DNA of 64,000 bases from Escherichia coli (GTDB lineage: Bacteria; Pseudomonadota; Gammaproteobacteria; Enterobacterales; Enterobacteriaceae), in NCBI RefSeq assembly GCF_003334785.1, contig NZ_QOWV01000005.1; one strand, written 5' to 3'. Made by a program: the position numbers and the translations under genes. Below the pieces are notes generated by a model. That model had not been told where the DNA came from and made no database searches. It saw nothing but the letters and a program-made list of their open reading frames with translations. The number at the start of each line of letters is the position of its first letter. The stretch's first letter is position 1. Below, one piece after another: positions 24,318 to 29,359 of the stretch.

Positions 24318-26051
24318 GTGAAACAACAGATACAACTTCGTCGCCGTGAAGTCGATGAAACGGCAGACTTGCCCGCTGAATTGCCTCCCTTGCTGCGCCG
24401 TTTATACGCCAGCCGGGGAGTACGCAGTGCGCAAGAACTGGAACGCAGTGTTAAAGGTATGCTGCCCTGGCAGCAACTGAGCGGCGTCGAAAAGGCCGTT
24501 GAGATCCTTTACAACGCTTTTCGCGAAGGAACGCGGATTATTGTGGTCGGTGATTTCGACGCCGACGGCGCGACCAGCACGGCTCTAAGCGTGCTGGCGA
24601 TGCGCTCGCTTGGTTGCAGCAATATCGACTACCTGGTACCAAACCGTTTCGAAGACGGTTACGGCTTAAGCCCGGAAGTGGTCGATCAGGCCCATGCCCG
24701 TGGCGCGCAGTTAATTGTCACGGTGGATAACGGTATTTCCTCCCATGCGGGGGTTGAGCACGCTCGCTCGTTGGGCATCCCGGTTATTGTTACCGATCAC
24801 CATTTGCCAGGCGACACATTACCCGCAGCGGAAGCGATCATTAACCCTAACTTGCGCGACTGTAATTTCCCGTCGAAATCACTGGCAGGCGTGGGTGTGG
24901 CGTTTTATCTGATGCTGGCGCTGCGCACCTTTTTGCGCGATCAGGGCTGGTTTGATGAGCGTAACATCGCAATTCCTAACCTGGCAGAACTGCTGGATCT
25001 GGTCGCGCTGGGGACAGTGGCGGACGTCGTGCCGCTGGACGCTAATAATCGCATTCTGACCTGGCAGGGGATGAGTCGCATCCGAGCCGGAAAGTGCCGT
25101 CCGGGGATTAAAGCGCTGCTTGAAGTGGCAAACCGTGATGCACAAAAACTCGCCGCCAGCGATTTAGGTTTTGCGCTGGGGCCACGTCTCAATGCTGCCG
25201 GACGACTGGACGATATGTCCGTCGGTGTGGCGCTGTTGTTGTGCGACAACATCGGCGAAGCGCGCGTGCTGGCAAATGAACTCGATGCGCTAAACCAGAC
25301 GCGAAAAGAGATCGAACAAGGAATGCAAATTGAAGCCCTGACCCTGTGCGAGAAACTGGAGCGCAGCCGTGACACGCTACCCGGCGGGCTGGCAATGTAT
25401 CACCCCGAATGGCATCAGGGCGTTGTCGGTATTCTGGCTTCGCGCATCAAAGAGCGTTTTCACCGTCCGGTTATCGCGTTTGCGCCAGCAGGTGACGGTA
25501 CGCTGAAAGGTTCCGGTCGCTCCATTCAGGGGCTGCATATGCGTGATGCGCTGGAGCGATTAGACACACTCTACCCTGGCATGATGCTGAAGTTTGGCGG
25601 TCATGCGATGGCGGCGGGTTTGTCGCTGGAAGAGGATAAATTCAAACTCTTTCAACAACGGTTTGGCGAACTGGTTACTGAGTGGCTGGACCCTTCGCTA
25701 TTGCAAGGCGAAGTGGTATCAGACGGTCCGTTAAGCCCGGCCGAAATGACCATGGAAGTGGCGCAGCTGCTGCGCGATGCTGGCCCGTGGGGGCAGATGT
25801 TCCCGGAGCCGCTGTTTGACGGTCATTTCCGTCTGCTGCAACAGCGGCTGGTGGGCGAACGTCATTTGAAGGTGATGGTCGAACCGGTCGGCGGCGGTCC
25901 ACTGCTGGATGGTATTGCTTTTAATGTCGATACCGCCCTCTGGCCGGATAACGGCGTGCGCGAAGTGCAACTGGCTTATAAGCTCGATATCAACGAGTTT
26001 CGCGGCAACCGCAGCCTGCAAATTATCATCGACAATATCTGGCCAATTTAG
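24318..26051 (+). CDS. recJ: ssDNA-specific 5'-3' exonuclease RecJ, 577 aa; GTG start
   Basis: Track ORF 24318..26051; DHH phosphoesterase motifs (GDFDADGATS, DHH). Confidence 0.96.
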   Translation: MKQQIQLRRREVDETADLPAELPPLLRRLYASRGVRSAQELERSVKGMLPWQQLSGVEKAVEILYNAFREGTRIIVVGDFDADGATSTALSVLAMRSLGCSNIDYLVPNRFEDGYGLSPEVVDQAHARGAQLIVTVDNGISSHAGVEHARSLGIPVIVTDHHLPGDTLPAAEAIINPNLRDCNFPSKSLAGVGVAFYLMLALRTFLRDQGWFDERNIAIPNLAELLDLVALGTVADVVPLDANNRILTWQGMSRIRAGKCRPGIKALLEVANRDAQKLAASDLGFALGPRLNAAGRLDDMSVGVALLLCDNIGEARVLANELDALNQTRKEIEQGMQIEALTLCEKLERSRDTLPGGLAMYHPEWHQGVVGILASRIKERFHRPVIAFAPAGDGTLKGSGRSIQGLHMRDALERLDTLYPGMMLKFGGHAMAAGLSLEEDKFKLFQQRFGELVTEWLDPSLLQGEVVSDGPLSPAEMTMEVAQLLRDAGPWGQMFPEPLFDGHFRLLQQRLVGERHLKVMVEPVGGGPLLDGIAFNVDTALWPDNGVREVQLAYKLDINEFRGNRSLQIIIDNIWPI

Positions 26052-26141
26052 CGTCATCTTCTCTATAAAAAAGAGCGTGGATTGGGTACAATCCCGCTCT
26101 TATCACCGCATTTTGACTAGCTCAATAAAAGAAATCAGACC

Positions 26142-27240
26142 ATGTTTGAAATTAATCCGGTAAATAATCGCATTCAGGACCTCACGGAACGCTCCGACGT
26201 TCTTAGGGGGTATCTTTGACTACGACGCCAAGAAAGAGCGTCTGGAAGAAGTAAACGCCGAGCTGGAACAGCCGGATGTCTGGAACGAACCCGAACGCGC
26301 ACAGGCGCTGGGTAAAGAGCGTTCCTCCCTCGAAGCCGTTGTCGACACCCTCGACCAAATGAAACAGGGGCTGGAAGATGTTTCTGGTCTGCTGGAACTG
26401 GCTGTAGAAGCTGACGACGAAGAAACCTTTAACGAAGCCGTTGCTGAACTCGACGCCCTGGAAGAAAAACTGGCGCAGCTTGAGTTCCGCCGTATGTTCT
26501 CTGGCGAATATGACAGCGCCGACTGCTACCTCGATATTCAGGCGGGGTCTGGCGGTACGGAAGCACAGGACTGGGCGAGCATGCTTGAGCGTATGTATCT
26601 GCGCTGGGCAGAATCGCGTGGTTTCAAAACTGAAATCATCGAAGAGTCGGAAGGTGAAGTGGCGGGTATTAAATCCGTGACGATCAAAATCTCCGGCGAT
26701 TACGCTTACGGCTGGCTGCGTACAGAAACCGGCGTTCACCGCCTGGTGCGTAAAAGCCCGTTTGACTCCGGCGGTCGTCGCCACACGTCGTTCAGCTCCG
26801 CGTTTGTTTATCCGGAAGTTGATGATGATATTGATATCGAAATCAACCCGGCGGATCTGCGCATTGACGTTTATCGCGCGTCCGGCGCGGGCGGTCAGCA
26901 CGTTAACCGTACCGAATCTGCGGTGCGTATTACCCACATCCCGACCGGGATCGTGACCCAGTGCCAGAACGACCGTTCCCAGCACAAGAACAAAGATCAG
27001 GCCATGAAGCAGATGAAAGCGAAGCTTTATGAACTGGAGATGCAGAAGAAAAATGCCGAGAAACAGGCGATGGAAGATAACAAATCCGACATCGGCTGGG
27101 GCAGCCAGATTCGTTCTTATGTCCTTGATGACTCCCGCATTAAAGATCTGCGCACCGGGGTAGAAACCCGCAACACGCAGGCCGTGCTGGACGGCAGCCT
27201 GGATCAATTTATCGAAGCAAGTTTGAAAGCAGGGTTATGA
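26142..27240 (+). CDS. prfB: peptide chain release factor 2, 365 aa, requires programmed +1 ribosomal frameshift at 26214-26220
   Basis: Frame 0 from ATG 26142 encodes [25 protein letters not shown] then in-frame TGA (26217-26219). Frame +1 continues as [18 protein letters not shown]... (track ORF 26359..27240 is the downstream part); GGQ motif (SGAGGQHVN) present. Confidence 0.93.
26201..26220 (+). promoter_or_regulatory. RF2 autoregulatory frameshift site: internal SD-like AGGGGG + UAU CUU UGA C
   Basis: cttagggggtatctttgac read directly; canonical prfB recoding signal. Confidence 0.9.
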
Positions 27241-27249
27241 GGAACCAAC

Positions 27250-28767
27250 ATGTCTGAACAACACGCACAGGGCGCTGACGCGGTAGTCGATCTTAACAAT
27301 GAACTGAAAACGCGTCGTGAGAAGCTGGCGAACCTGCGCGAGCAGGGGATTGCCTTCCCGAACGATTTCCGTCGCGATCATACCTCTGACCAATTGCACG
27401 CAGAATTCGACGGCAAAGAGAACGAAGAACTGGAAGCGCTGAACATCGAAGTCGCCGTTGCTGGCCGCATGATGACCCGTCGTATTATGGGTAAAGCGTC
27501 TTTCGTTACCCTGCAGGACGTTGGCGGTCGCATTCAGCTGTACGTTGCCCGTGACGATCTCCCGGAAGGCGTTTATAACGAGCAGTTCAAAAAATGGGAC
27601 CTCGGCGACATCCTCGGCGCGAAAGGTAAGCTGTTCAAAACCAAAACCGGCGAACTGTCTATCCACTGCACCGAGTTGCGTCTGCTGACCAAAGCACTGC
27701 GTCCGCTGCCGGATAAATTCCACGGCTTGCAGGATCAGGAAGCGCGCTATCGTCAGCGTTATCTCGATCTCATCTCCAACGATGAATCCCGCAACACCTT
27801 TAAAGTGCGCTCGCAGATCCTCTCTGGTATTCGCCAGTTCATGGTGAACCGCGGCTTTATGGAAGTTGAAACGCCGATGATGCAGGTGATCCCTGGCGGT
27901 GCCGCTGCGCGTCCGTTTATCACCCACCATAACGCGCTGGATCTCGACATGTACCTGCGTATCGCGCCGGAACTGTACCTCAAGCGTCTGGTGGTTGGTG
28001 GCTTCGAGCGTGTATTCGAAATCAACCGTAACTTCCGTAACGAAGGTATTTCCGTACGTCATAACCCAGAGTTCACCATGATGGAACTCTACATGGCTTA
28101 CGCAGATTACAAAGATCTGATCGAGCTGACCGAATCGCTGTTCCGTACTCTGGCACAGGATATTCTCGGTAAGACGGAAGTGACCTACGGCGACGTGACG
28201 CTGGACTTCGGTAAACCGTTCGAAAAACTGACCATGCGTGAAGCGATCAAGAAATATCGCCCGGAAACCGACATGGCGGATCTGGACAACTTCGACTCTG
28301 CGAAAGCAATTGCTGAATCTATCGGCATCCACGTTGAGAAGAGCTGGGGTCTGGGCCGTATCGTTACCGAGATCTTCGAAGAAGTGGCAGAAGCACATCT
28401 GATTCAGCCGACCTTCATTACTGAATATCCGGCAGAAGTTTCTCCGCTGGCGCGTCGTAACGACGTTAACCCGGAAATCACAGACCGCTTTGAGTTCTTC
28501 ATTGGTGGTCGTGAAATCGGTAACGGCTTTAGCGAGCTGAATGACGCGGAAGATCAGGCGCAACGCTTCCTGGATCAGGTTGCCGCGAAAGACGCAGGTG
28601 ACGACGAAGCGATGTTCTACGATGAAGATTACGTCACCGCACTGGAACATGGCTTACCGCCGACAGCAGGTCTGGGAATTGGTATCGACCGTATGGTAAT
28701 GCTGTTCACCAACAGCCATACCATCCGCGACGTTATTCTGTTCCCGGCGATGCGTCCGGTAAAATAA
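27250..28767 (+). CDS. lysS: lysyl-tRNA synthetase (constitutive), 505 aa
   Basis: Track ORF 27250..28767, [44 protein letters not shown]...; class II aaRS motifs. Confidence 0.97.
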
Positions 28768-28787
28768 GCATTACGTTATGCTCACAA

Positions 28788-28812
28788 CCTCGGCAAATGT
28801 CGGGGTTTTTTT
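28788..28812 (+). terminator. terminator after lysS (hairpin with G-U pairs + T7 run)
   Basis: cctcggcaaatgtcgggg followed by ttttttt; overlaps the 3' end of convergent idi. Confidence 0.6.
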
Positions 28813-29359
28813 ATTTAAGCTGGGTAAATGCAGATAATCGTTTTCTGGCTTCGCGATTTGTCGCCTGCATCACCATCCACGGACTGAACGCCCACGGCGT
28901 GGCATCAATACCGTGTAATACATCTGCTAAATCACACCATTGATAATCCATCACTTCATCATCATTGATCTGTAACGCACTAGTGGTGCGTGCGGCAAAT
29001 ACCGGACACACTTCATTTTCCACAATGCCACTCGGATCGGTGGCGCGGTAGCGAAAGTCAGGATAGATAGATTCAGGAGGCGTAATTTCCACGCCAAGCT
29101 CATAACGGCAACGGCGGATCACTGCGTCTTCGTTGCTTTCTCCCAGTTGTGGGTGCCCACAAACCGAGTTAGTCCACACGCCAGGCCATGCTTTTTTGCT
29201 CAGTGCGCGGCGGGTAACTAATAATTGTCCTTTGGCATTAAACAGCCAACTGGAGAACGCGAGATGTAAGCGGGTGTCTGCCGTGTGTGCGGCATACTTT
29301 TCCAGCGTACCCGTGGGAACTCCCTGTGCATTCAATAAAATGACGTGTTCCGTTTGCAT
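28811..29359 (-). CDS. idi: isopentenyl-diphosphate delta-isomerase (Nudix type 1), 182 aa
   Basis: Track ORF 28811..29359, [41 protein letters not shown]... Confidence 0.95.

Follow-up and report, generated by a model that had tools for sequence, protein, structure and literature searches.

The window analysed here, a stretch of 64,000 nucleotides, covers the E. coli chromosome at recJ-prfB-lysS. RecJ is encoded upstream (1192 bits, NF008290) and LysS downstream (1110 bits, NF009101), and this gene order is the E. coli arrangement. Judged from its sequence, the interval 26142..27240 between these two genes is prfB, encoding RF2. RefSeq annotates it as a two-piece joined CDS, named prfB and carrying the note "programmed frameshift", and the same two-piece annotation was found in four further strains. 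The original prediction had held that the gene model must join two frames; the RefSeq CDS is indeed joined over the identical interval. The features of the gene and of its frameshift site are listed in Table 1.

Table 1. Features of prfB and its frameshift site, in coordinates of the window.
Feature	Coordinates	Strand	Remarks
prfB segment 1, frame 0, codons 1-25	26142..26216	+	Equals residues 1-25 of crystallised E. coli RF2; RefSeq CDS begins at the same base
Recoding cassette proper	26205-26220	+	AGGGGG TAT CTT TGA C
Internal Shine-Dalgarno (SD)-like element AGGGGG	26205..26210	+	Predicted to pair with the 16S rRNA anti-SD tail
3-nt spacer, UAU (Tyr) codon	26211..26213	+	Would be in the E site while CUU is in the P site
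Slippery run CUU U	26214..26217	+	CTT 26214-26216, T 26217; P-site tRNA-Leu would re-pair from CUU to UUU; slippery sequence in the literature CTTT (PMC12421855)
In-frame RF2-specific stop UGA followed by C	26217..26220	+	TGA 26217-26219, C 26220; weak UGAC termination context (PMC12421855)
prfB segment 2, +1 frame, codons 26-365 (GAC onwards) and terminal TGA	26218..27240	+	Terminal TGA at 27238-27240
Codon 246, GCG (Ala), canonical 'B-type' allele	26878..26880	+	K-12 has ACG (Thr)

On the plus strand, positions 26201-26220 read TCTTAGGGGGTATCTTTGAC, of which the first four bases (TCTT) immediately precede the SD-like element. This direct reading bore out the original prediction of an intact prfB +1 frameshift site at 26201-26220: its coordinates were all right, and the in-frame TGA that it placed at 26217-26219 is present. 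All sequence elements of the prfB +1 frameshift class are present with canonical spacing: a short 5' ORF ending in UGA near codon 26, the run CUUU, a 3' C, and AGGGGG 3 nt upstream of CUU. Every element named for prfB frameshift sites in the literature has its counterpart here at the right spacing (PMC12421855).

The short 5' ORF (ORF0) starts with the ATG at 26142, which is in frame with the TGA at 26217-26219, and comprises 25 sense codons. From 26218 the +1 frame meets no stop before the one that ends at 27240, and upstream it extends without interruption as far as a TAA at 26161-26163. Between this TAA and position 26359, the +1 frame was found to hold no ATG, GTG or TTG. Because it has no start codon before 26359, the mechanical ORF list shows only 26359..27240 (293 aa). 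The expectation that ORF callers would split prfB therefore held for naive ORF finders, which show only that fragment, but not for NCBI PGAP, which handled the gene correctly.

Several further features were noticed around the gene. A consensus scan of 25900-28900 for sigma-70 promoters and terminators found no consensus promoter for prfB in the recJ-prfB spacer; the same scan returned a weak minus-strand match in that spacer and a terminator-like hairpin after lysS, which lies at 28786-28807 and carries a T-run. The spacer also contains an inverted repeat, AGAGCGTGGATTGGGTACAATCCCGCTCT, at 26072-26101, of which the scan flags the central part only, on the minus strand. The terminal stop of prfB itself (27238-27240) is an RF2-specific UGA as well, in the context UGAG. 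The ATG of lysS follows at 27250, 9 nt past the prfB stop, and because of this 9-nt gap prfB and lysS look co-transcribed. An antisense ORF of 334 aa at 26203-27207 (-) lies wholly within prfB, where RefSeq annotates nothing; it looks like the typical 'shadow' ORF of a codon-biased gene.

Joining 26142-26216 to 26218-27240 yields a protein of 365 aa. As had been proposed, translation in frame 0 to 26216 and then in the +1 frame from 26218 gave a product that corresponds end to end to E. coli RF2. Residues 1-365 align with residues 1-365 of solved E. coli RF2 chains (1gqe, 1ml5 and many ribosome complexes; E about 1e-240), and the alignment runs uninterrupted over the junction ...RGYL|DYDAKK.... 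The joined product scored 525.9 bits on the NCBIfam model TIGR00020 prfB (cutoff 370), with an alignment beginning at residue 12, and it stayed below the cutoffs of the RF1 models. Furthermore, it contains SPF, the motif for stop-codon recognition, at residues 205-207 and the motif GGQ at residues 250-252.

The 16-mer cassette has a single match in the 64-kb window when both strands are searched and up to 2 mismatches are allowed. Dinucleotide-preserving shuffles gave a chance expectation of 0.01 per window, and chance occurrence of the cassette in the window is excluded. The hexamer CTTTGA occurs 35 times on both strands together, and an SD-like run lies just upstream of only one of these 35 hexamers, the one in prfB. 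For the anti-SD sequence of the 16S rRNA 3' tail we used CACCUCCUUA, which is established knowledge and was not read from the window. Its predicted duplex with TTAGGGGGTA amounts to -10.7 kcal/mol. The duplex at the SD-like element is the strongest of the whole prfB mRNA and ranks within the top 0.08% of the window's 10-mers. The literature consensus for the SD-like element is AGGGGG (PMC12421855). A second strong anti-SD-pairing site of about -10.0 kcal/mol, GGAAGGTGAAG, was observed inside the prfB coding region at 26647-26658 (+), and neither a stop codon nor a slippery run is adjacent to it.

A scan of the whole window at the Rfam gathering thresholds found no RNA family at the frameshift site, which fits a site that requires no structured RNA element. 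The only Rfam hits in the window were 6S RNA, SIB, naRNA4 and a tRNA. The SIB antitoxin RNA (133.8 bits) lies at 5475-5625 (-), opposite an ibsC type I toxin ORF that is annotated in a related strain, and the 6S RNA ssrS (139.8 bits) lies at 6274-6457 (-). The match to naRNA4 (CssrE, nucleoid-associated ncRNA; 75 bits) is in the trhA-ygfZ intergenic region at 19968-20045 (-) and is probably a REP-type repeat. The tRNA is tRNA-Gly(CCC) (glyU) at 63187-63260, which appears to be an integration hotspot. In strain M217, a site-specific integrase directly follows glyU. A 901-bp stretch at the end of the window (63187-64000 region) was covered for at least 80% in only 3874 of the 5426 complete E. 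coli genomes, and the genomes that best match this end carry a match-splitting IS1, which the window lacks.

The prfB locus (1301 bp) was found in one copy in each of the 5426 complete E. coli genomes (5426/5426), many of them 100% identical, and a 301-bp probe spanning the site matched with at least 99% identity in 5401 of these 5426. We aligned five E. coli sequences, namely the window, the most divergent strains listed, and one strain with a 1-bp length difference. The 16-nt cassette was invariant across all five, and the substitution closest to it was synonymous and affected codon 27 (TAC/TAT). In strain Z0117EC0116, the length difference of 1 base was considered as a change that might remove the need for a frameshift and was rejected, as the indel sits in an A-run of the 5' leader, off the site. 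The record that carries one of the 5426 prfB loci bears the label of a plasmid rather than a chromosome; probably the replicon is mislabelled, or the assembly has produced a chromid-like artefact.

The cassette was also sought in other species, by scanning the genomes of species representatives for RGGGGGTAYCTTTGAC at the DNA level. The scan returned at least 120 loci, which were chosen by the cassette itself and hence show the persistence of the exact cassette rather than its frequency. Among the matches listed, 115 of 120 loci had the cassette in a prfB homologue with a short ORF0 followed by a +1 ORF of about 340 codons, and their joined products align across the junction to the RF2 of the window. 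RF2 identity to the window ranged from 28 to 99.7% in these 115 listed loci, and from 41 to 99.7% for full-length genes. The hosts among the matches listed include Gamma- and Betaproteobacteria, Bacteroidota, Nitrospirota and Deinococcota. For the 113 listed loci whose flanks were long enough, the two 45-nt stretches bordering the cassette were only 51% and 63% identical to the window (ungapped). Among the matches listed, the degenerate R position of RGGGGGTAYCTTTGAC was A in all 113 scored loci. The wobble base of the Tyr spacer was T in 93 and C in 20 of the 113 listed loci, and the spacing was fixed. The other five of the 120 matches listed, at L065 365-380 (+) (a Methanoregulaceae archaeon MAG contig) and in L031, L046, L057 and L067, were rejected as chance matches without RF2 homology or the two-frame layout. 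An unbiased survey of more than 12,000 genomes described the frameshift elements as 'almost completely conserved' and as probably going back to the ancestor of Bacteria (PMC12421855).

These patterns bear on what the frame break could otherwise be. A sequencing or assembly error, or an inactivating mutation that had turned prfB into a pseudogene, would also explain why the naive ORF list splits the gene in two. However, all E. coli genomes sampled show the identical break, which is annotated as programmed, and 115 species representatives among the matches listed have it at the same codon. Moreover, prfB is single-copy in the 5426 complete E. coli genomes and it is an essential gene; it therefore cannot be a pseudogene, and a break that is not programmed is extremely improbable. 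The gene could instead yield two separate products without any frameshift, a 25-aa peptide and a truncated RF2 of 293 aa initiated at the internal ATG 26359, which is the first start codon of the +1 frame. Residues 26-72 are, however, coded in the +1 frame upstream of 26359, where there is no start codon, and they are identical to the corresponding residues of the solved full-length RF2 of E. coli. The alignment to TIGR00020 prfB from residue 12 onwards and the junction peptide implicit in the 365-residue RF2 chains of the PDB likewise argue against an internal start, and we consider two separate products very unlikely.

The frame might also be restored in the RNA, by transcriptional slippage or editing that drops one base, and the site does have short homopolymer runs, GGGGG and TTT, that could be taken to favour this. 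Known transcriptional slippage sites have far longer homopolymer runs, and the conserved, fixed SD spacing, the weak RF2-specific stop and the CUU codon are sensible only for a ribosomal event. Published work places the event on the ribosome (PMC12421855; PMC5373646), and an RNA-level correction seems every bit as improbable as an error or inactivating mutation. Even less probable is readthrough of the frame-0 UGA, by a suppressor tRNA or with insertion of tryptophan or selenocysteine, in place of a +1 shift. UGAC is a leaky stop context (PMC12421855), but frame 0 continues past the TGA for 31 Arg-rich residues unrelated to RF2 before it meets another stop, and RF2 is encoded by the +1 frame only.

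Hence, the site is almost certainly the canonical autoregulatory programmed +1 ribosomal frameshift of E. coli prfB, and nothing in the sequence speaks against this reading. Our own observations cover the anatomy of the sequence, the identity of the joined product, its conservation and its public annotation. Slippage at the site, and its dependence on the RF2 level, we infer from published experiments in E. coli in which the cassette was identical (PMC12421855, PMC5373646). The frameshift mechanism at prfB has been described (PMC12421855), and ribosome profiling in E. coli backs both the shift at codon 26 and its response to release-factor activity (PMC5373646). On this model, translation would start at the ATG at 26142 and proceed through 25 codons until CUU (26214-26216) has reached the P site and the A site contains UGA (26217-26219). 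The UGA would be read only by RF2 and, with C as the next base, would be a poor terminator, at which RF2 would compete with slippage. When RF2 is plentiful, translation would terminate at the internal UGA and the 25-residue peptide would be released. When RF2 is scarce, the ribosome would pause, AGGGGG 3 nt upstream would pair with the anti-SD tail of the 16S rRNA and destabilise the E-site tRNA, and the peptidyl-tRNA-Leu would slip from CUU to UUU. GAC (26218-26220) would then be read as codon 26, and translation in the +1 frame would yield the 365-aa RF2. RF2 would therefore limit its own synthesis.

The prfB site can be compared with several known systems. In the general features of frameshifting it shares with dnaX an internal SD-like element that stimulates the change of frame. 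In dnaX, however, the shift is a -1 shift on a heptanucleotide, the SD spacing is longer and a stem-loop lies downstream, whereas the prfB site has its +1 shift at a stop codon, an SD spacing of 3 nt and no need for downstream structure. The programmed +1 frameshift of prfB in E. coli K-12 was reportedly described by Craigen et al. 1985, Craigen & Caskey 1986 and Weiss et al. 1987, which PMC12421855 cites. Its cassette, ORF0 length (25 codons), spacing and flanking genes are identical to those of the window, and the only difference is at codon 246, which is ACG (Thr) in K-12 and GCG (Ala) in the window. The frameshift sites of prfB across Bacteria are said to have been treated by Baranov et al. 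2002. The consensus for the whole domain, AGGGGG followed by a 3-nt spacer and CTTTGAC, is found in the window without any difference (Prince et al. 2025, PMC12421855).

Compared with the K-12 derivative XL1-Blue, prfB of the window differs by one nucleotide in the whole gene, with G instead of A at 26878. Accordingly, the joined protein differs from the K-12 sequence at residue 246 only, which is also visible in the PDB alignment. Because it carries the Ala246 allele, its sole difference from XL1-Blue across prfB, the window does not come from a K-12 strain. Thr246 occurs in K-12 alone and is associated with a lowered peptide-release activity (PMC5373646). 'B-type' RF2 has been reported to be more active than K-12 RF2 and to have a lower expression, and K-12 cells with Ala246 RF2 express less RF2 (PMC5373646). 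The lower RF2 expression with Ala246 is consistent with a lower frameshift set-point. Most quantitative work is based on K-12 values. It is improbable that the 25-residue peptide of ORF0 has a function of its own, that the set-point in an Ala246 background is measurably unlike the K-12 values, or both; the set-point difference is partly supported by the published comparison of RF2-B with RF2-K-12.

The site had been put forward as well established and listed for the sake of annotation, which is a fair description of a consensus textbook example that is already in RefSeq. As the prfB site is already known, its value here is for the gene model only. The correct prfB CDS is join(26142..26216,26218..27240); without the join, prfB would appear as a 25-codon ORF and a 293-codon fragment missing the first 72 residues of RF2. 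At the strain level, the analysis adds that the RF2 encoded here is the canonical Ala246 form and not the Thr246 form of K-12, and this too is already known. More generally, prfB is the textbook case in which a gene uses a stop codon to sense its own product.
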